Assembly (NCBI RefSeq): GCF_030013205.1
Contig: NZ_CP122648.1
Strand: one strand, 5' to 3'
Length of the DNA stretch: 64,000 bases
Source of the DNA: Escherichia coli
GTDB taxonomy: Bacteria > Pseudomonadota > Gammaproteobacteria > Enterobacterales > Enterobacteriaceae
Under the pieces are notes generated by a model. It was not told the DNA's origin, ran no database searches, and saw only the letters and a program-made list of their open reading frames with translations. Shown piece by piece: positions 3,023 through 27,141 of this stretch. The position numbers and the translations under genes were made by a program. How positions within the stretch are numbered: position 1 is the stretch's first letter; each line of letters starts with the position of its first letter.

Positions 3023-5196
<2,174 letters not shown>

Positions 5197-19047: not shown

Positions 19048-20799
19048 ATGATTCAGGACGCTTTTGTGCGCCAGCGTGCGCGACAACTTTACTGGCAGGG
19101 TTATCCGCCCGCAGAAATATCACGTCTGATGGGAATAAACCCGAACACGATTTATGCGTGGAAAAAACGCGACCAGTGGGATGAAACGCCACCCGTGCAG
19201 CGTGTCACGCAGTCCATCGATGCGCGCCTCATCCAGCTTACTGAAAAACAGAATAAAACAGGCGGTGACTTTAAGGAAATAGACCTGCTGACCCGGCAGC
19301 TTAAAAAACTGCATGATGGCCAGCCGGATGTGACGGCCACAGGAAAGAAAGGCCGGGCGAAAAAACTCAAAAATCATTTCACGCCGGAACAGATTGCCGC
19401 ACTGCGGGAAAAAATCATCAGCAGGCTGGAGTGGCATCAGCGGGGCTGGTTTGACTCCCTGACCCTTTGCAGGGAAGCCGGGATACGTAACAGGATGATC
19501 CTGAAATCCCGACAGATTGGGGCGACCTGGTATTTTGCACAGGAAGCACTGCTGATGGCGCTGCGTGACGATGTGGCGCAACCTTACCAGCGTAACCAGA
19601 TTTTTTTGTCTGCGTCGCGTCGTCAGGCGTTCCAGTTTAAAAGCATTATTCAGAAGGCCGCGGCTGAAGTTGATGTGGAGCTGAAAGGGGGCGATAAAAT
19701 CATCCTCTCCAACGGCGCAGAGCTGCATTTTCTCGGCACTTCTGCTGCGTCGGCACAGTCCTATACGGGCAATTTTTATTTTGATGAATTCTTCTGGGTC
19801 AGTCGCTTTGCTGAACTGCGCAAGGTGGCTGGCGCTATGGCAACCCTCAGCGGACTGCGGCGCACCTACTTCTCCACGCCATCCACCGAAACGCACGAGG
19901 CATACGCCTACTGGAACGGCGACCGCTGGAACGAGAAAAAGGCCACGCATAAACGCCAGCGTTTTTCTGTGGACTGGAAAACGCTGCATAACGGGCTTAT
20001 CTGCCCTGACCGGACGTGGCGGCAAATTGTCACGCTGGAAGATGTGGTTAATCACGGCTGGAAACACACCGATATTGACGAAATCCGTGATGAAAACACC
20101 GAAGACGAGTTCCTCAATCTCTATATGTGTGAGTTTGTTCGCGAAGGGGAATCGGCATTTAACCTGAATATCCTGATTGGCTGCGGTGTTGACGGATACG
20201 ACGACTGGAAAGACTGGAAACCTTTTGCTCCCCGCCCGATGGGGAATCGTCCGGTATGGATTGGGTATGACGCAAACGGCAGCAGTGGCAACGGCGACAG
20301 CGGCGCTGTGTCCGTGGTGGTTCCTCCGGCTGTTCCTGGTGGCCGTTTTCGAACGGTGGAGACGCGACGCGTTCAGGGGCTGGAGTTTGAAGAACAGGCC
20401 AGAGTCATTGAAGAGTTCACGTATCGCTACAACGTGGAACACATCGGCATTGATGTGACGGGCGGGAACGGGGAGGCTGTTTATCAGATAGTGAAACGGT
20501 TTTTCCCTGCTGCTATTCCGTACACCTTCACGCTGTCATCAAAACGGTCGCTGGTACTGAAAATGCTGCAAATAATGCGTGCCGGGCGGTGGGAATACGA
20601 TCGCGCCGAACGCGAGCTGGTCGCGGCCTTTAACGCCGTGCGTAAGGTGAAAACACCGGGCGGCTTTATCACTTACGAAACGGACCGCGCGAGGGGGATC
20701 AGCCACGGCGACCTTGCGTGGGCAACCATGCTTGCTGTCATTAACGAACCGATTGGCGGCGAAGGAGAAAACGAGCGTTTCACGGTTATGGAGTTCTGA
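19048..20799 (+). CDS. Terminase large (ATPase) subunit (P2 gpP-like)
   Basis: 583 aa with N-terminal HTH-like region and nuclease-like C-terminus; size and position as P2 P. Confidence 0.85.
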   Translation: MIQDAFVRQRARQLYWQGYPPAEISRLMGINPNTIYAWKKRDQWDETPPVQRVTQSIDARLIQLTEKQNKTGGDFKEIDLLTRQLKKLHDGQPDVTATGKKGRAKKLKNHFTPEQIAALREKIISRLEWHQRGWFDSLTLCREAGIRNRMILKSRQIGATWYFAQEALLMALRDDVAQPYQRNQIFLSASRRQAFQFKSIIQKAAAEVDVELKGGDKIILSNGAELHFLGTSAASAQSYTGNFYFDEFFWVSRFAELRKVAGAMATLSGLRRTYFSTPSTETHEAYAYWNGDRWNEKKATHKRQRFSVDWKTLHNGLICPDRTWRQIVTLEDVVNHGWKHTDIDEIRDENTEDEFLNLYMCEFVREGESAFNLNILIGCGVDGYDDWKDWKPFAPRPMGNRPVWIGYDANGSSGNGDSGAVSVVVPPAVPGGRFRTVETRRVQGLEFEEQARVIEEFTYRYNVEHIGIDVTGGNGEAVYQIVKRFFPAAIPYTFTLSSKRSLVLKMLQIMRAGRWEYDRAERELVAAFNAVRKVKTPGGFITYETDRARGISHGDLAWATMLAVINEPIGGEGENERFTVMEF

Positions 20800-21845
20800 T
20801 GAGCAGAAAAAATAAAAAAGTGCGCATGAGTTCACGCATTGATCTCGCTGATGCGCTCAGGAAAGAATCATCGCTCAGTGCATTCACATTTGATGGTCCT
20901 TATCGCCTGACCGGGCATGACCTGCTGGACAATATGTACTGTGCTGATAACGGGCGGTGGTATGAAACCCCGGTGGACTGGTACGGTCTGGCAAGAGCAG
21001 CCCGGCAAACGTCCTGGCATCAGTCTGCGCTTTACTTTAAGCGCAATGTATTACTCGGTTGCTACATCCCGCACCCGCTGCTTTCCCGGCAGGATTTCTC
21101 GGCGCTGGCGCTGGACTGGTTTGTGTTCGGTAACGCATTCCTTGAGCTTCGAAGCAATATGCTCGGCGAACCGCTTAAATTACGGCACGCACTGGCGAAA
21201 TACATGCGACGCGGAAGCGATCTTGAATCATGGTGGTATGTGCAGGATGGCAAGGACGCGTTCCAGTTTCGCCCTGGCAAAGTGTGCCACCTGATGAATC
21301 CGGACATTAACCAGGAAATTTACGGCATGCCGGAATATCTTGGCGCATTACTCTCGGCAAGCCTGTCTCATTCGGCGGACATGTTCAGAAAACTGTATTA
21401 CGACAATGGATCCCACGCCGGGTGCATTATCTACATCGGTGCAGCGCAGGTAAACCGCGAAAGCATGGACTCCCTGAAAGAAACGCTACAGGGTGCGCGT
21501 GGTGGTGGTGCGTTTAAAAACGTGCTCATTCATGCGCCCAACGGGGGCAAAGAGGGGGTGCAAATTTTGCCGTTCCAGCAGATCACCGCAAAGGATGAGT
21601 TCATGAATGTTAAGGCGGCATCCCGTGATGATGTGCTGGCTGCGCACCGCGTTCCGCCGCAACTGATGGGGGCGATGCCGGGTGAAAAAAGTGCGTTTGG
21701 TGATGTGGAGAAGGCCGCGCGGGTTTACGCAATTAACGAGCTGATGCCCGTCATGGAGGCCATGAAGCACATCAATGACTGGCTTGGCGAAGAGGTGATC
21801 CGCTTTAACCCTTACGCACTGTTAGACACCCAGCCCACATCCTGA
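20799..21845 (+). CDS. Portal protein (P2 gpQ-like)
   Basis: 348 aa immediately after the terminase gene (ATGA overlap); P2 portal is ~344 aa. Confidence 0.8.
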   Translation: MSRKNKKVRMSSRIDLADALRKESSLSAFTFDGPYRLTGHDLLDNMYCADNGRWYETPVDWYGLARAARQTSWHQSALYFKRNVLLGCYIPHPLLSRQDFSALALDWFVFGNAFLELRSNMLGEPLKLRHALAKYMRRGSDLESWWYVQDGKDAFQFRPGKVCHLMNPDINQEIYGMPEYLGALLSASLSHSADMFRKLYYDNGSHAGCIIYIGAAQVNRESMDSLKETLQGARGGGAFKNVLIHAPNGGKEGVQILPFQQITAKDEFMNVKAASRDDVLAAHRVPPQLMGAMPGEKSAFGDVEKAARVYAINELMPVMEAMKHINDWLGEEVIRFNPYALLDTQPTS

Positions 21846-21906: not shown

Positions 21907-22332
21907 TCCTGTATCAGTCAGATAATTTCACGACGCTTTCCTGCTTATTGCCATCATCGACGGTCAGACTCTTACGCAATCCCACCGCGTTGACTGCATG
22001 TTCTTCGACGCCTCAGTGCGATTTTGACGGCCTTACCTTTCACCCCATCAAATTAGAATCCCTCACGTCTTTTTCACACTCAGCGTGAGAAATACAGCCA
22101 TTCTGTTGTGTTGCTGCGACATCGTTCAGGGGATGCTATTTACCCCCTGAAACGCGGGCTGTTCCCCCGTCACCTGCGCGCAGAAAAAACGCGTTTTTTT
22201 GTGCACGTACGGATCCTTGACGGATCCAGCCACCACGCGGGCCGGAAGTACAAAAAGTCGTTCAAAAAAATTGTGCAAACTTGTGCACTATCGTGCAAAC
22301 AAAAAAAGCGCCTTATCGGCGCTTCAAAAGTA

Positions 22333-22602
22333 TCAATTGTTGCTGTGTATTAATCGCCAACCACGAACATATGCTTCATAGGCATCTCTGTGCCTTACAG
22401 TTCCAGCCTGGCTAAACGGAATGTTAGCTAAAACTAAATCATTCTGAGCCATAGCGCGTCCTTCAAGCGCATCTTTTATGCCTAGCTCAAAAGCACAGGC
22501 AGCGCATTTGTGCCGACCTTCTTGTCCTTGATATTCAGGGAGAGACAGAAATGTTGGATTATAACGATGAGGGTTCTTGCAAATACCTGTTTTAGCCCGC
22601 AC
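22333..22602 (-). CDS. Hypothetical small protein, Cys/His-containing
   Basis: 89-aa ORF between the cos region and parR; no clear family assignment from sequence. Confidence 0.4.
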   Translation of the reverse strand: MRAKTGICKNPHRYNPTFLSLPEYQGQEGRHKCAACAFELGIKDALEGRAMAQNDLVLANIPFSQAGTVRHRDAYEAYVRGWRLIHSNN

Positions 22603-22732
22603 TTTATTTACCTCATAGGAAAAATATGCGTGCCTTTACAGAGGTGCGTGTAAGCAATAAAATATACGACGCACATTTTGATTTACTTCGGAAGGCACGC
22701 ATATCAGGTTAAGTGAGTCCGACCGAGTTTTA

Positions 22733-22765
22733 CGCCCCAATAGTTGCTGCTATTGGGGCGTTTTG
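22733..22765 (+). terminator. Intrinsic terminator hairpin plus U-tract on the plus strand, ending a structured region
   Basis: cgccccaatagttgctgctattggggcg followed by ttttg; a long-range complementary pair tatgcgtgcctt / aaggcacgcata lies upstream at 22615..22693. Confidence 0.45.
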
Positions 22766-22966
22766 CATGGACAATGCCGCGCAATTATCTTGTCGCTCAC
22801 AATGCGAACGATCTTACAAAAAGGCACATTACTGTCAAGATAATTGATCGTTTTAATCGATAGATAATAGACAATCTATTTGTTTAACAGATCGATTATT
22901 GAAGTAAGTGTGCCAAGTGGAATGATACTGTCTCTATAAACGTGAGCATTTTTCGCGCAGATGCTT

Positions 22967-23278
22967 TTACTCAGGAAATAACGCCCGGATATTCCCAGCC
23001 ATCTGGCTGGTTATCTTAGCCACTGGTGCAGACTGTGCTTCAAACTTTTTTGAGCTGATTTGTGTCACAGGTAACATCTCATCATCAGCCCATGCGGCCA
23101 GTCGGTAAGCCTCTGCCGGATTCGTCTTCAGAAGTGCCAGCCCGGCCAGAAAAGCCACGCGTTGGCCGCTTTTGCGGGCTTCTGGTGTAAGGCTGTCCAG
23201 CCAGGCGCATGCTTCTCCTTCGTTCTTGACGGCAGCTGGCTTCAGATAGAAACTTATCCGTCTGGTTGGTGTTGTCAT
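22967..23278 (-). CDS. parR: ParR-like centromere-binding adaptor
   Basis: 103 aa from the ATG at 23278, preceded by AGGAG 7 nt upstream and only 4 nt after the parM stop; resembles R1 ParR (RRISFYLKP...LDSLTPEARKSGQRVAFLAGLALL). The longer annotated ORF 22967..23413 overlaps parM and is rejected. Confidence 0.7.
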   Translation of the reverse strand: MTTPTRRISFYLKPAAVKNEGEACAWLDSLTPEARKSGQRVAFLAGLALLKTNPAEAYRLAAWADDEMLPVTQISSKKFEAQSAPVAKITSQMAGNIRALFPE

Positions 23279-23282
23279 TGGT

Positions 23283-24242
23283 TTACTCCTTGTCCATTGC
23301 GTACAGCCCATTAACCAGAGCAAACTGTGGCACCCCGTCCGCGATGAAAGTCGCATTAACTCCGCAGGCTTCGCGGATAGCGGGTGCCACAATCTCCGCC
23401 CCGCCACCGACAACCATCACCCGCCCGTAACCCGAAAAACCCGCCAGCGCGCGGATCACGCGTTGTTTCAGTGTTTCTTCCTTTTCACGAATAACCGCCA
23501 TCAGGCTGGCGTAATGCGCGTCATTGTGGATGTGCTGGCGCAGCCAGGCTTCATCATGGCGATGTTCGATAATGGTATTGGCGATGTGGTGACTGGTACG
23601 CATACCGTTAGTGGCCATCACCGACAGTACGGCATCGGCCATCAGGGAAACGCCTACGTGTGGATCGCAAAACACCTGGCTGATACCTGCCAGTTGTCCC
23701 TGAACCTTTGCCACATCCAGCGTGGTTCCGCCTAAATCCACAATCAGCAGGGATTCAAACGGACTCATGTCAGCCAGTGCTTTAAAGCCAGCCGGAATGG
23801 ATTCAGGCATAACCCGTACGTTACGGATAGTGAATGCTTCGCCGTTCTGGTACTCCACCGGGCGCATGACGTTCGCTTTTTTGCGGTTGATGTTGGCCAT
23901 GTCCGGCTGTGCGTTTGTGTCGAAATATTCGCTCAGTGGCAGGGTGACAACCACATCCACTTCCTGTGGTGTGATGCCTGATTTGACCAGCGCGTGATGA
24001 ATGGCAATGACATTCACATCGCTGTACTGGTATTGCGTGTCGGTCGTCTGGACAAAGCGATCGCTGACCGGATCAAAACCATAGCGCACGCCATCAAGCA
24101 TGTAGTTCGCGGGCTGCGTGCCACCGAACGGCGCAGACCATTCCGACTTGAAGCTGTTCGGGCTGATGGCGTTGCGGCGTTCGCCGTTCTCAGTCCATGC
24201 CAGCTTGATGTTGGTGGAGCCGTCATCGATACAAATTTTCAT
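23283..24242 (-). CDS. parM: ParM/StbA-family actin-like segregation ATPase
   Basis: 319 aa MKICIDDGSTNIKLAW...SPNSF...VMPESIPAG...LIVDLGGTTLD...VMVVGGGAE; close to plasmid R1 ParM along the whole length. Confidence 0.85.
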   Translation of the reverse strand: MKICIDDGSTNIKLAWTENGERRNAISPNSFKSEWSAPFGGTQPANYMLDGVRYGFDPVSDRFVQTTDTQYQYSDVNVIAIHHALVKSGITPQEVDVVVTLPLSEYFDTNAQPDMANINRKKANVMRPVEYQNGEAFTIRNVRVMPESIPAGFKALADMSPFESLLIVDLGGTTLDVAKVQGQLAGISQVFCDPHVGVSLMADAVLSVMATNGMRTSHHIANTIIEHRHDEAWLRQHIHNDAHYASLMAVIREKEETLKQRVIRALAGFSGYGRVMVVGGGAEIVAPAIREACGVNATFIADGVPQFALVNGLYAMDKE

Positions 24243-24274: not shown

Positions 24275-24382
24275 TTACGGGATTCTGAAATCCCGTTTTT
24301 GCCTGTTTTATGCGCGCTTCATATATCGCGGCGCGTTTTTTGCTCATTTACGGGATTTGTGAATCCCGTTTCTGTCTGTTTT
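24275..24382. promoter_or_regulatory. parC-like centromere/operator: two 35-bp direct repeats, each holding a 20-bp palindrome, flanking a putative promoter
   Basis: Repeat A 24275..24309 (ACGGGATTCTGAAATCCCGT) and repeat B 24348..24382 (ACGGGATTTGTGAATCCCGT), 73 bp apart, directly upstream of parM; repeat B overlaps the last codons of the A-like ORF. Confidence 0.6.
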
Positions 24383-27141
24383 TTGTTTCCACTGGTCAGG
24401 CCTCCCCGCAGCAGGTCTGCTTTGCGGCGGGCGCGTTCAGTGGTTTCACTGATTCTCTGTGCGTGCTCTGCGTCGCGGATGGCGCGCAGCATGTCAGAAA
24501 GCACGGTAACGGGTGTTTTCATGGTGTTCTGGTCCTGCTGAAGTGTGGATGCCAGGCGTGCGGCGGCTTCGGGGTCTGATGCCCCCAGCTGTTCCAGATA
24601 GCTGGCGACCGGGTTATGGCGGATCTCCGTGCTGCTTACGCCGTGGTTACGGCTCAGGCGCTGCCAGAGCTGCGTGATCCGGCTGTCCGGTCGGGTATCC
24701 GGTTTGCGTACAATTTCAAATCCCTGCGGTGCAATGATGCTGCCGTCGACGTACAGACTGCCGCCCCGTAACAGGTGCTGCATCTGCTGTTCACCGATAT
24801 GCAGGCCGAGAGATTCAGCAGACTCCCGCCATTCTTTAGCGAGTAACTCGTGGTTATCAGGCAAAGGCCGTGGCTGTTTGCGGCTCTGTGTCCAGTTCTG
24901 CATTTCATCACTGCTGTTTTTTGCCTGTTTGTCACGCAGCGAACGCATCAGCGCCCGGCGTTCGTGCCGTTTCAGTGAGCGCATCCATTCATTCACGTCA
25001 ACGCCGTCAGGAAGCTGCGGCCACGGTGCTGGCCGTTCTTCCGGCTGTTCTGTCCCGTTGTTGTCCGTTTCCTGTACACGGGGACAGTTATTGCCACGAG
25101 TCCAAGGGGCGGCAGGGCCGCCCTGAAGGTCAAAACCATTTTCGCGGGCGCTGTCTTCCGCTTCCGGTTTACGTCTTACCAGCTTCCAGTTATCCGGATG
25201 TGTGCACACACGGGAAGACTCCCCGATGAGCGGTGACCAGATCCCGTAAATCTGTACGCTCTGTTCGCCGTAATCGTTCAGCTCATCTGCGAGGTCGTAG
25301 GCGGTGCGAATCAGGTAGTCTTTGCGTGGAACAAGTACGCCGCCCTGTTTTTCAATGTAGGAGGCAAAACACCCGGCATCAGCGGCAGCGAGCACTGCAT
25401 CCATTGCGTCATCCTTCAGTCGTTGCGGGCCTTCCGGGTTGCGTGCCATCTGGCTGGCAAGGCGGCGCAGTTCACGCCACACCTGACGGGAGGGGATGCC
25501 AAAGAACTGGAACTGGCGGACCCGGTGAAGGCGCGCCCAGCCGATGGCGCGCTCCACGCTCTCGGCCATTGATTTTCCGGTTTCGTGGTCAACGCGTGGC
25601 TTGCCCGTTTTCGGGTCGATACCATCCACGGCGCGGCTGTCCAGGTTCTTTCCGATGTAGGTGGCGATGTAGCTGGTTGGCGTGCCTTTTGAGCCGTCGA
25701 CGTACTCCGCCTTAAAACGCGGAGTTATGTCATCGCCCAGCTCGTGGCGGTCTTCCTGAATGGCAATATCGCAGACGTGGGACACGATGGTTTCAATCTC
25801 GTCCGGATGTGCAAAGACCATCATATGCCAGTGCACAGTGCCGTCATGGTGAGGCTCCACCGTGCGGATGCCATACCAGCGAAGACCGTCGCGGTTCAGT
25901 TTTTTGCGGACCGCCGCAAAAAACGTGTTAACCAGGTAATCGCTGGAGTCGCGCATGGTGGCCCCGTTCCATTTGGGATTCGGATGACCGTTCTCTGTTG
26001 TGGCGTGGTATTTTGACGGGCAGGTGACAGTCAGAAACACCGCTCTGTCGCCACGGGCTTCGGCCAGAAGTTCCAGTCCCTTCATGGTGGCCATCATTTC
26101 TGCCTTACGGTGAACCGGGTTACTTACTCCCGCGTAATACACCGTCTCGAGATCAATCGTGAACCCGTCTTCATTTTCCAGCATGAAACTTTTCAGGAAA
26201 TCGCGTGTTTTCTCGCGCTGTGCGCGAAACTCGCTTAACGCGTCCTGGCTCAGATAGGGTGATGTTTTTCTGGAAACCAGACAGGCGGCGCGGAGTTGTT
26301 CTTCTCTCCACTCGCAACGTAACAGCCACAGTTTGCGTTTCCACCATTCCGCACAGGTCAGGCGAAGGATTGCGCCCGGCAGCAGCTCCGTGTCCGGTTC
26401 GTTCCTCCGGTCTTTGTCTGTTGTCAGTGCGTCATAATGTGGAGGCATGGCGTGCAGGTGTAACGCCATGCGGGCCAGCATCTGATACGCCTTCAGCGTT
26501 ACATCCATGGTCAGTTCGCCATCAGTAGCGCCAAAGCCATCGCAGAGTTTTTCGAAGGTGCTGCTGAACATCGCCGCCGTCATGGTGGCCAGCGTCTGTA
26601 TCTGGTGTTTGTTGAGCTGCGGCAGGTAAAGCAAATCGTCCAGGCGTTCGCGTCCGGCAAGGGAGCGATAACCCGGTGTCAGCCAGCGGTGATCGGTGCG
26701 GTCCAGACGTTCGAATATTTTGCGCAGGGTTCCGCGCGCGTAGCGTTCCGCCTGCCAGCTCTTTTTGCCTTTCTGACGATCGGCTTCCTGCTTCTTGCGC
26801 AGGAAGGAGAGGTGGCGAATAAGCGGATCGCGCAGATAGGACGGCAGCAGGCGCAGCGAGGCCATGGCTTCATCCACCGCGCCGCGTGCCTGTTTTCTGG
26901 CGTCTCCTGCCAGTGTGATGGTTTTGTCCTGTTTTTCCTGTGCGTCCAGGCTTTTATTAATCAGGTTGCCCAGCGGCGTGGCGGAGAACGCCGCATCAGC
27001 CATTTCCTGGCGGCGCTCGTTCTCTACCCGGTAGGCATCCAGCCAGGAGGAAAGCGCGGATTCAGGAGCGGAGATCCCCGTTCCTTCACGCCCCACTGCG
27101 TGGCGCGGTTGTTGCCAGTCCCTGATGTACTCTGCCGTCAT
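24319..27141 (-). CDS. Replication initiation endonuclease (P2 gpA-like, rolling-circle)
   Basis: 940-aa ORF containing SKYH and VEPHHDGTVHWHMMVF, matching the P2 A signature (VEPHHDGTPHWHMMLF) and the catalytic Tyr region; longer than P2 A (761 aa), so start and C-terminal extent are uncertain. Confidence 0.85.
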   Translation of the reverse strand: MTAEYIRDWQQPRHAVGREGTGISAPESALSSWLDAYRVENERRQEMADAAFSATPLGNLINKSLDAQEKQDKTITLAGDARKQARGAVDEAMASLRLLPSYLRDPLIRHLSFLRKKQEADRQKGKKSWQAERYARGTLRKIFERLDRTDHRWLTPGYRSLAGRERLDDLLYLPQLNKHQIQTLATMTAAMFSSTFEKLCDGFGATDGELTMDVTLKAYQMLARMALHLHAMPPHYDALTTDKDRRNEPDTELLPGAILRLTCAEWWKRKLWLLRCEWREEQLRAACLVSRKTSPYLSQDALSEFRAQREKTRDFLKSFMLENEDGFTIDLETVYYAGVSNPVHRKAEMMATMKGLELLAEARGDRAVFLTVTCPSKYHATTENGHPNPKWNGATMRDSSDYLVNTFFAAVRKKLNRDGLRWYGIRTVEPHHDGTVHWHMMVFAHPDEIETIVSHVCDIAIQEDRHELGDDITPRFKAEYVDGSKGTPTSYIATYIGKNLDSRAVDGIDPKTGKPRVDHETGKSMAESVERAIGWARLHRVRQFQFFGIPSRQVWRELRRLASQMARNPEGPQRLKDDAMDAVLAAADAGCFASYIEKQGGVLVPRKDYLIRTAYDLADELNDYGEQSVQIYGIWSPLIGESSRVCTHPDNWKLVRRKPEAEDSARENGFDLQGGPAAPWTRGNNCPRVQETDNNGTEQPEERPAPWPQLPDGVDVNEWMRSLKRHERRALMRSLRDKQAKNSSDEMQNWTQSRKQPRPLPDNHELLAKEWRESAESLGLHIGEQQMQHLLRGGSLYVDGSIIAPQGFEIVRKPDTRPDSRITQLWQRLSRNHGVSSTEIRHNPVASYLEQLGASDPEAAARLASTLQQDQNTMKTPVTVLSDMLRAIRDAEHAQRISETTERARRKADLLRGGLTSGNKKQTETGFTNPVNEQKTRRDI

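Follow-up and report, generated by a model that had tools for sequence, protein, structure and literature searches.

Cis-antisense systems, namely sar/ant of phage P22, type I toxin-antitoxin loci, RNA-OUT of IS10 and the countertranscripts of plasmids, appear from general knowledge to be the closest functional counterparts of the locus described here. In P22, the sar RNA covers the ribosome-binding site of ant. Type I toxin-antitoxin loci possess a long structured 5' UTR, a sequestered SD and an antisense promoter that lies within the leader or close by it, and the type I toxin is a small (usually under 60 aa), hydrophobic, toxic peptide. The IS10 promoter pIN carries a GATC and is Dam-sensitive. 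The locus analysed here is the ~360-bp gap between orf89 and parR in the window, which is a 64,000-nucleotide stretch of Escherichia coli DNA. The gap is probably best explained as a sense promoter and structured leader of orf89 combined with a convergent cis-antisense RNA that gates the gene.

On this explanation, the locus would resemble P22 immI sar/ant (RF00262) in its temperate phage setting, its short cis-antisense RNA (here predicted), a promoter inside the target transcript and an end at a GC-rich hairpin, and sister cassettes carry an Ant-like anti-repressor gene. However, it shows no homology to sar (22 bits against a gathering score of 43, from a hairpin match only), it lacks the arc and mnt genes of immI, and its predicted antisense RNA would face an upstream leader helix and not the SD. 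Type I toxin-antitoxin loci such as hok/sok, tisB/istR-1, zor/orz and symE/symR likewise have the structured 5' UTR, the sequestered SD, an antisense promoter within the leader or close to it and an antisense target ahead of the ribosome-binding site, whereas the cargo here is either an 89-aa predicted soluble protein of apparently novel fold or a 233-aa Ant-like Bro-N protein; neither Orf89 nor the Bro-N cargo is a small hydrophobic membrane toxin. Convergent promoters and a short stem-loop antisense RNA (here predicted) directed at the 5' part of an mRNA recall IS10 RNA-IN/RNA-OUT, CopA/CopT and ctRNA, as does the conserved GATC at the sense promoter in the case of IS10 pIN, but the target here would lie 60-130 nt upstream of the start codon. 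The likeness to R1-type ParMRC parC consists of adjacency to parR and dyad symmetry only; unlike parC, the gap is without iterons, and it occupies a variable slot downstream of parR and is missing from relatives that carry ParMR.

The structure prediction and covariance search suggested by the first-pass annotation of this DNA gave strong folds and Rfam matches below threshold only. An Rfam 15 cmscan of the window with 4227 models reached no gathering score and returned sub-threshold hairpin matches alone, the best of which (score/gathering score, in bits) were to ctRNA_pGA1 (RF00236, 22.1/45), sar (RF00262, 22.0/43) and Spot_42 (RF00021, 19.4/80). Given the shortfall of its weak, hairpin-only match, the element is therefore not a member of ctRNA_pGA1. 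A cmscan of four related loci gave no leader match, and none of the Rfam antitoxin families matched the leader in either the window or these four loci. The literature searched held no description of the leader/antisense element.

The part of the window around the gap is a P88-like prophage (genus Xuanwuvirus, P2 family) in the E. coli chromosome, with the following features:

19048-20799, plus strand: terminase
20799-21845, plus strand: portal
22305..22325, minus strand: terminator-like hairpin and T-run directly after the orf89 stop, from a terminator scan; 3' end of the cassette
22333-22602, minus strand: orf89, with a GTG start
22603-22966: ~360-bp gap between orf89 and parR
22967-23281, minus strand: parR/StbB-type gene, whose stop at 22967 adjoins the gap
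23283-24242, minus strand: parM
24275-24297 and 24348-24370: 23-bp dyad repeats just upstream of parM, parC candidates
24319-27141, minus strand: gpA-like replication endonuclease

Other Xuanwuviruses (P88, P884B11, Shae_phiSM and Chuche) are 86-88% identical to the window in parM and parR, and in each of them the P88-type homology ends exactly at the parR stop. On the other flank, backbone homology to P88 ends at ~22312-22316, and these two breaks therefore delimit a cargo slot at ~22313-22966. The same slot in P88 contains two other genes, with a plain terminator after parR and without the palindrome motif described below. The 671 bp comprising orf89 and the gap are present in 165 of 5426 complete E. 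coli genomes (~3%), at identities of at least 98.8% and always on the chromosome. Over 22300-22970, the E. coli strains 503025 and 14EC047 are 100% identical to the window. Because the slot is variable and holds other genes in P88, this distribution argues that the gap with orf89 is variable cargo outside the ParMR partition system. The gene that travels with the gap is orf89.

All the features that the first-pass annotation described within the gap are real and beyond chance. Its long-range complementary pair, placed at ~22615 and ~22682, is a perfect 13-nt inverted repeat that lies ~10 nt higher: a repeat search locates ATATGCGTGCCTT at 22624-22636 and AAGGCACGCATAT at 22692-22704. Its GC-rich hairpin and U-tract on the plus strand were recovered with arms at 22732-22743 and 22750-22761 and TTTT at 22762-22765, and its AT-rich dyad symmetries correspond to a perfect 11-nt repeat and a 26-nt imperfect palindrome. 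Perfect inverted repeats of at least 13 nt arose in three of 500 dinucleotide shuffles of the gap, and the real gap has repeats of 13, 12 and 11 nt. The predicted fold of the plus strand over 22603-22775 has an energy of -65 kcal/mol, with shuffles at -39.1 +/- 3.6 (z = -7.15), and that of the minus-strand leader has z = -4.46. The features of the gap are as follows:

22603..22623, minus strand: translation initiation region, with SD GAGG at 22614-22611, 8 nt before the GTG
22624..22636, minus strand: 3' arm of helix P3 in the sense leader, given as tatgcgtgcctt in the first-pass annotation
22635..22663, plus strand: antisense promoter, with -35 TTTACA at 22635-22640, a 17-bp spacer and -10 TAAAAT at 22658-22663; predicted start at ~22670
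~22670-22766, plus strand: predicted cis-antisense RNA of ~95-100 nt
22692..22704, minus strand: 5' arm of helix P3 in the sense leader, given there as aaggcacgcata
22732..22765, plus strand: GC-rich hairpin P2 of 12-13 bp with TTTT, putative terminator of the antisense RNA
22782-22792 and 22836-22846: perfect 11-nt inverted repeat CAATTATCTTG / CAAGATAATTG, which brackets the sense promoter
22811..22849, minus strand: orf89 sense promoter, with GATC at 22849-22846, -35 TTGACA at 22838-22833, a 16-bp spacer and -10 TAAGAT at 22816-22811
22840-22865 and 22874-22899, no strand: AT-rich 26-nt imperfect palindrome upstream of the sense -35

Read on the minus strand, the gap has the make-up of the control region of orf89, consisting of a promoter and a ~200-nt structured leader. 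The earlier label of a structured non-coding region therefore holds for the structure and not for the minus strand, which carries the promoter and 5' leader of a gene. The sigma70-type promoter would start the orf89 mRNA at ~22804, giving a leader of ~200 nt, and its pattern, GATC-N5-6-TTGAnn-N16-19-TAnnnT, is present in 43 of 44 distinct homologous leaders. On the gene strand, the shared layout runs from TAAGnnGATC-N5-6-TTGAnn(-35)-N16-19-TAnnnT(-10) through a 5' hairpin (P1), the motif AUAnGGRAA, the GC-rich hairpin P2 (the 'terminator' of the first-pass annotation), an A-rich linker, the long-range helix P3 (its complementary pair), which encloses a hairpin or variable insert and an invariant UGUAAAG, and an SD-sequestering hairpin, to the start codon. 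In the window, P3 is formed by pairing of 22704-22692 with 22636-22624. Sequence and folds both point to a U-rich stretch within 22603..22623 that is able to base-pair with the SD and that shares nucleotides with the end of the P3 3' arm; in all lineages, the distal part of this arm overlaps with the anti-SD strand of the SD hairpin. Dam sensitivity is hinted at by the GATC conserved ahead of the sense -35 and by GAGATCTC, which is invariant in most leaders. The palindrome at 22840-22899 is confined to the P88-like lineage, where it is almost invariant, and is a candidate operator for a putative protein ligand. The 11-bp inverted repeat, CAATTATCTTG with CAAGATAATTG, is not conserved in L004-type relatives and is specific to the window.

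Homologous leaders were collected by protein-guided searches that yielded ~35 diverged viral loci and 80 genomic loci, and the search for related loci used a 9-sequence alignment. A protein homologue search with Orf89 gave only two near-identical clusters, and a 14-mer search of viral contigs gave mostly chance matches, a gapped pattern being more specific. The leaders fall into 44 distinct versions from P88-like, P22-like, Providencia, Morganella, Pantoea and Gilliamella phages. The same upstream layout precedes every Orf89 homologue of the enterobacterial and Orbales clade, the carriers being P88-like and P22-like phages and loci of Providencia, Morganella, Proteus, Pantoea, Yersinia, Rahnella, Citrobacter, E. 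whittamii and Gilliamella. The leader motifs are absent from distant Orf89 homologues in Bacteroidota, Spirochaetes, Firmicutes and some Enterobacterales, and the leader is therefore specific to one gammaproteobacterial clade. Two P88-like prophages, L004 and L005, carry a 57%-identical Orf89 homologue that is unannotated in RefSeq; their gap keeps the hairpin, the promoter region and the palindrome at ~75% identity with the window, and its long-range pair is replaced by a different complementary pair. DNA identity between the window and these L004-type intermediates is 74.6% over 22733-22912, and it is on the intermediates and the shared architecture that the putative family membership of the window's leader rests. 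At other sites, downstream of cI or near lysis genes, the leader occurs without parMR next to it.

To align the helices across lineages, plain MAFFT alignments were insufficient: RNAalifold left the helices unregistered on them (3 pairs; a partial result), and an anchored duplex analysis and a covariance model were therefore used. The model, R1, was built from three lineages and finds the leader in P88-like loci (E ~3e-6), Providencia loci and Gilliamella loci. It gives a weak partial match to the window's leader, which is the most diverged copy (15.9 bits, E = 0.42), and misses Morganella-type leaders. In the 29 distinct sequences of alignment A9, which was fitted to the model so that pairing is inflated, 88.4% of cells are paired against 73.6% when shuffled, 141 cells show double-sided change against 42.7, the covariation score is 0.374 against 0.141 (reached by 0 of 500 shuffles, with slid partners at 0.03-0.07), and compensatory changes affect ten of 12 P2 pairs and nine of 13 P3 pairs. 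None of the 44 distinct leaders lacks P3, which occurs in about ten sequence versions; duplexes between a lineage's own arms average -16.2 kcal/mol against -9.1 kcal/mol across lineages, and the own partner is the best in seven of ten lineages. An equivalent of the SD-sequestering hairpin also covaries in relatives (pairs 177-181 with 197-201).

The strand on which each helix acts can be read from its wobble pairs. Counted on the sense strand, P3 has ~54 G·U cells and P2 has two. Among 29 distinct P2 versions, the antisense strand forms 35 G·U pairs and 334 base pairs in total, against nine and 307 on the sense strand, and several single substitutions in P2 that would produce an A·C mismatch in the sense RNA leave a G·U wobble in the antisense RNA. 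The stability of P1 is far higher on the sense strand. This bias in G·U pairs and in P1 stability therefore argues for P1, P3 and the SD hairpin as structures of the orf89 mRNA, and for P2 as a hairpin that appears to have been selected in an RNA from the opposite strand.

A promoter for such an RNA is suggested by the conservation of the leader. All 44 distinct leaders carry, on the antisense strand, TTTACA (40) or TTTACT (four), an exact 17-bp spacer and TAnnnT, the last in seven different versions. In alignment A3, the columns invariant across all lineages are TGTAAAG and an A...TA 17 bp upstream on the sense strand, which read CTTTACA-N17-TA...T in the antisense direction; the invariant UGUAAAG of the leader is thus the sense-strand reading of the antisense -35. 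In the window, the antisense -10 (22658-22663) falls within the P3-enclosed insert and touches neither arm of the helix. A fixed 17-bp spacing combined with a variable inner -10 is the conservation pattern of a sigma70 promoter, as judged from these alignments, and is unlike that of a helix. Promoter-like sites in the window alone are no commoner than in shuffles (two found against 1.9 expected), and the argument for the promoter therefore rests on its conservation. On sequence evidence alone, the locus has the opposite-strand promoter within the leader of its target that is typical of countertranscripts.

From these observations, we infer that a cis-antisense RNA exists, ends at P2 and gates translation of orf89. 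The first-pass annotation had offered a small RNA antisense to the orf89 leader as one possibility, and this predicted RNA has strong comparative support, in that the promoter is present in 44 of 44 leaders, the hairpin covaries and pairing is better on the antisense strand; the size it gave, ~150 nt, is replaced by ~95-100 nt. In the predicted RNA, the complement of the P3 5' arm occupies the 5' part, and the P2 hairpin with UUUU the 3' part. If the RNA is made, its complementarity to the leader is perfect by virtue of the cis arrangement. The P2 stem has eight G-C pairs and a stability of -22.7 kcal/mol on the plus strand, and is followed by UUUU only, one U of which can pair. The U-tract is poor in some lineages, such as those with GCUUCUAUAUCU and GUCCUAUAUAUG, and the site was not called by a simple terminator scan of the window. 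As a 3' end for the antisense RNA, P2 is conserved, covarying and antisense-biased but has a short or poor U-tract.

In the proposed mechanism, the convergent plus-strand promoter inside the leader would produce an RNA of ~95 nt that is complementary to the P3 5' arm and the linker and ends at P2 and UUUU (22732-22765). This RNA would pair with the P3 5' arm and break P3, and the 3' arm and anti-SD freed in this way would close over the SD, resulting in low translation of Orf89. The antisense duplex may also form a substrate for RNase III, and convergent transcription may add interference. The effect on translation was modelled by folding the leader with the antisense footprint blocked and taking the mean unpaired probability of the initiation region. 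Accessibility changed from 0.61 (free) to 0.43 (blocked) in the window, from 0.77 to 0.02 in L078 (SD only), from 0.27 to 0.00 in L094 and from 0.61 to 0.29 in L109; blocking made the modelled SD/start accessibility lower or left it unchanged, with no material rise in any leader. Repression via a broken P3 is therefore proposed on the basis of this drop and of the overlap between P3 and the anti-SD strand. The predicted RNA overlaps the leader in part and leaves the ribosome-binding site/SD uncovered, and its effect on translation is therefore a modelled one. In several lineages, the model has the SD already sequestered without antisense RNA.

A search for the leader that was independent of the Orf89 protein returned a second type of cargo. 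Two loci in which the leader stands before a Bro-N 'anti-repressor Ant' protein reach 98.9 and 109.7 bits with model R1, and the leader motif precedes a 231-234-aa Ant-like ORF in eight further IMG/VR loci. Orf89-type and Ant-type cassettes share their sequence up to the SD and diverge thereafter. In L327, the Ant-like cassette lies immediately downstream of the cI repressor gene, and the Salmonella phage BIS08P22 carries an Orf89 homologue in that same slot. The occurrence of the same leader before an Ant-like gene, and of both cargos in one slot downstream of cI, therefore argues that the regulatory cassette is a portable module that is exchangeable between cargos.

Orf89 itself has 89 aa and belongs to phrog_3941, of function unknown, and its sequence clusters are all named 'hypothetical' or 'uncharacterized' protein at source. 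Its conserved residues are C8, H12, H31, C33 and C36. An AF2 model (pLDDT 91.9) is compact and helical and has no fold match in the PDB, and the modelled fold is accordingly described as novel. PADLOC returned no match for Orf89, and Pfam nothing usable. In other bacteria, NOV_C nuclease-like, WYL and DndB proteins occur as fusions with the Orf89 domain. The P2-family cargo position is where phage 186 carries tum. Because Orf89 occupies the same slots as the Ant-like anti-repressor, in addition to this position, it could be a new small anti-repressor or defence trigger. A broader and speculative reading, to which we give only a small chance, is that promoter, leader and antisense RNA form an undescribed, portable 'immunity-I-like' gate that silences induction-type genes in lysogens of temperate enterobacterial phages; Orf89, of novel fold, probably zinc-binding and in Ant-like slots, would be the anti-repressor or trigger so controlled, and its release would depend on the Dam-methylation or replication state through the invariant GATC sites that lie at the promoter and within the leader.

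Several other explanations were weighed against the sense promoter, leader and convergent antisense RNA. One of them, a type I toxin-antitoxin-like or abortive-infection module, is compatible with the preferred explanation as a narrower version of it, in which Orf89 would inhibit growth and the antisense RNA would be the antitoxin. The long structured 5' UTR, the SD sequestration and the antisense promoter inside the leader all fit such a module, as do the accessory-gene positions (downstream of cI and in the P2-family cargo slot) and the fusion partners of the Orf89 domain, but Orf89, 89 aa long, compact and helical by prediction and with conserved Cys and His residues, differs from a short hydrophobic peptide, PADLOC is without a match and the alternative cargo is an Ant-like protein and not a toxin, so that we consider this version rather doubtful. 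The leader might also act within the sense mRNA only, with UGUAAAG, P2 and P3 serving as a protein-, ribosome- or ligand-responsive element or a stability element and without a functional antisense RNA. UGUAAAG is also the base of P3, and part of its conservation could therefore act at the RNA level; P1, P3 and the SD hairpin are clearly sense structures whose G·U pairs favour that strand, many lineages sequester the SD with no antisense RNA involved, and the U-tract after P2 is weak in some. Against this stand the G·U pairs of P2 (35 antisense, nine sense) and the TA...T that lies exactly 17 bp from TTTACA, with seven hexamers in 44 of 44 leaders, which is promoter-like and not helix-like, and a leader acting by itself is considered unlikely.

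The distribution of the cassette bears on the two readings that tie the gap to its neighbours. The first-pass annotation had raised a protein-binding site linked to partition, in which case the dyads or hairpins would serve the adjacent parMR as its parC centromere or as an operator for ParR. The region does border on the parR stop (22967), and its dyad symmetries include the palindrome that is nearly invariant in the P88-like lineage, but P88, P884B11, Shae_phiSM and others keep parMR (86-88%) and lose homology at the parR stop, and in P88 a plain terminator and another gene follow parR. Elsewhere, the leader sits downstream of cI or near lysis genes with no parMR annotated nearby, and better candidates for parC exist in the two unique 23-bp dyad repeats that precede parM. 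A repeat search found no iteron array in the gap, only two-copy short repeats and dyads. A parC or ParR site in the gap was ruled out by this distribution and by the absence of iterons, and the partition-linked reading was dropped as very improbable, the region lying in a variable slot and being absent from P88 and other ParMR-carrying relatives. It is scarcely credible, finally, that the plus-strand hairpin is a mere terminator for the terminase-portal late operon or that the region encodes a small plus-strand peptide. The hairpin and T-run do lie on the strand of terminase and portal, and ORFs of 44 and 39 aa overlap the hairpin, but other terminator-like sites and the opposite-strand orf89 intervene between portal and hairpin, and the hairpin keeps its place in the leader in unrelated genome contexts. 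The two small ORFs were ruled out by frame changes in the relative L004, in agreement with the first-pass annotation, which had seen no convincing ORF on the plus strand.

If the predicted antisense RNA is real, the cassette is an uncatalogued RNA regulatory module with related versions in many prophages of Salmonella, Pantoea, Morganella, Providencia, Yersinia and Gilliamella, and it has been exchanged between two cargo proteins that are unrelated, the Ant-like anti-repressor being one. Such a module would provide a handle on the post-transcriptional silencing of induction or accessory genes in temperate phages and on the function of the widespread Orf89 family. The annotation of the locus is corrected in two respects: the gap is not a partition site, and the orf89 homologue is unannotated in at least two RefSeq genomes.

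The segment of the prophage at window positions ~22313-22966, which holds orf89 and its structured leader, is a variable cargo slot, flanked by the parR stop on one side and by conserved backbone on the portal side. In P88 (L003 3270-4000), two unrelated small genes fill the slot instead of orf89 and its leader, and the slot may represent an accessory-gene hotspot of Xuanwuviruses. The promoter, leader, and antisense-promoter cassette also occurs with a different cargo: in 10 related loci (L213, L242, L277, L283, L286, L324, L327, L328, L333 and L336), a Bro-N "anti-repressor Ant" protein of 231-234 aa replaces the Orf89 homologue behind the same cassette, and in L327 a cI repressor lies directly upstream of it.

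The AF2 model of the Orf89 family (window 22333-22602, minus strand, and homologues) is confident, and a fold search of this model against the PDB returned no match. The pattern C-x3-H ... H-x-C-x2-C is conserved, and the family alignment contains two similar segments, R-H-K-x-A-x2-A-Y-x2-G. In other phyla, the Orf89 domain occurs in fusions with NOV_C nuclease-like, WYL, and DndB proteins. A 92-aa homologue is present at identical coordinates in two P88-like prophages, from E. coli ECL27829 and TUM9812 (L004, L005), where it is followed by a 95-aa hypothetical gene and is missing from the RefSeq annotation of both records.

The repeats and homologue are as follows:
4617-4895 (L004 and L005), minus strand: 92-aa Orf89 homologue
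22209-22227 (window): ACGGATCC, two copies
22270-22300 (window): GTGCA-containing repeat, three copies, GTGCAAAC twice and GTGCAC once
22782-22792 / 22836-22846 (window): perfect 11-bp inverted repeat bracketing the sense promoter
24275-24297 and 24348-24370 (window), minus strand: 23-bp repeat pair, AACGGGATT(n4)AATCCCGTAA, two unique copies

Each of the 44 distinct leaders has a GATC 5-6 bp before the sense -35 (22846-22849 in the window), and the 8-bp palindrome GAGATCTC within the leader is invariant in most lineages (leaders of L082-L121). The conservation of these two motifs suggests possible recognition by Dam, SeqA, or another protein. One arm of the 11-bp inverted repeat overlaps the sense -35 and the other spans +12 to +22; the repeat is present in the window lineage and absent from L004-type relatives. 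In Pantoea-type loci (L097-L105), TACTGTATATAAATACAGTA, a perfect LexA-box-like site, occurs ~370 nt before the start of the orf and adjoins a divergently oriented gene that precedes the cassette.

At 22170-22325, in the interval that separates the portal gene from orf89, short repeats are densely packed alongside A/T runs bearing dyads. P2-family phages have their cos site at the equivalent position; this stretch is possibly the packaging site. The 23-bp repeats, each with an internal dyad and spaced 73 bp apart, lie on either side of the replication gene's stop, with parM immediately downstream; no such pair is expected by chance. They are candidates for parC/ParR sites or for paired terminators.
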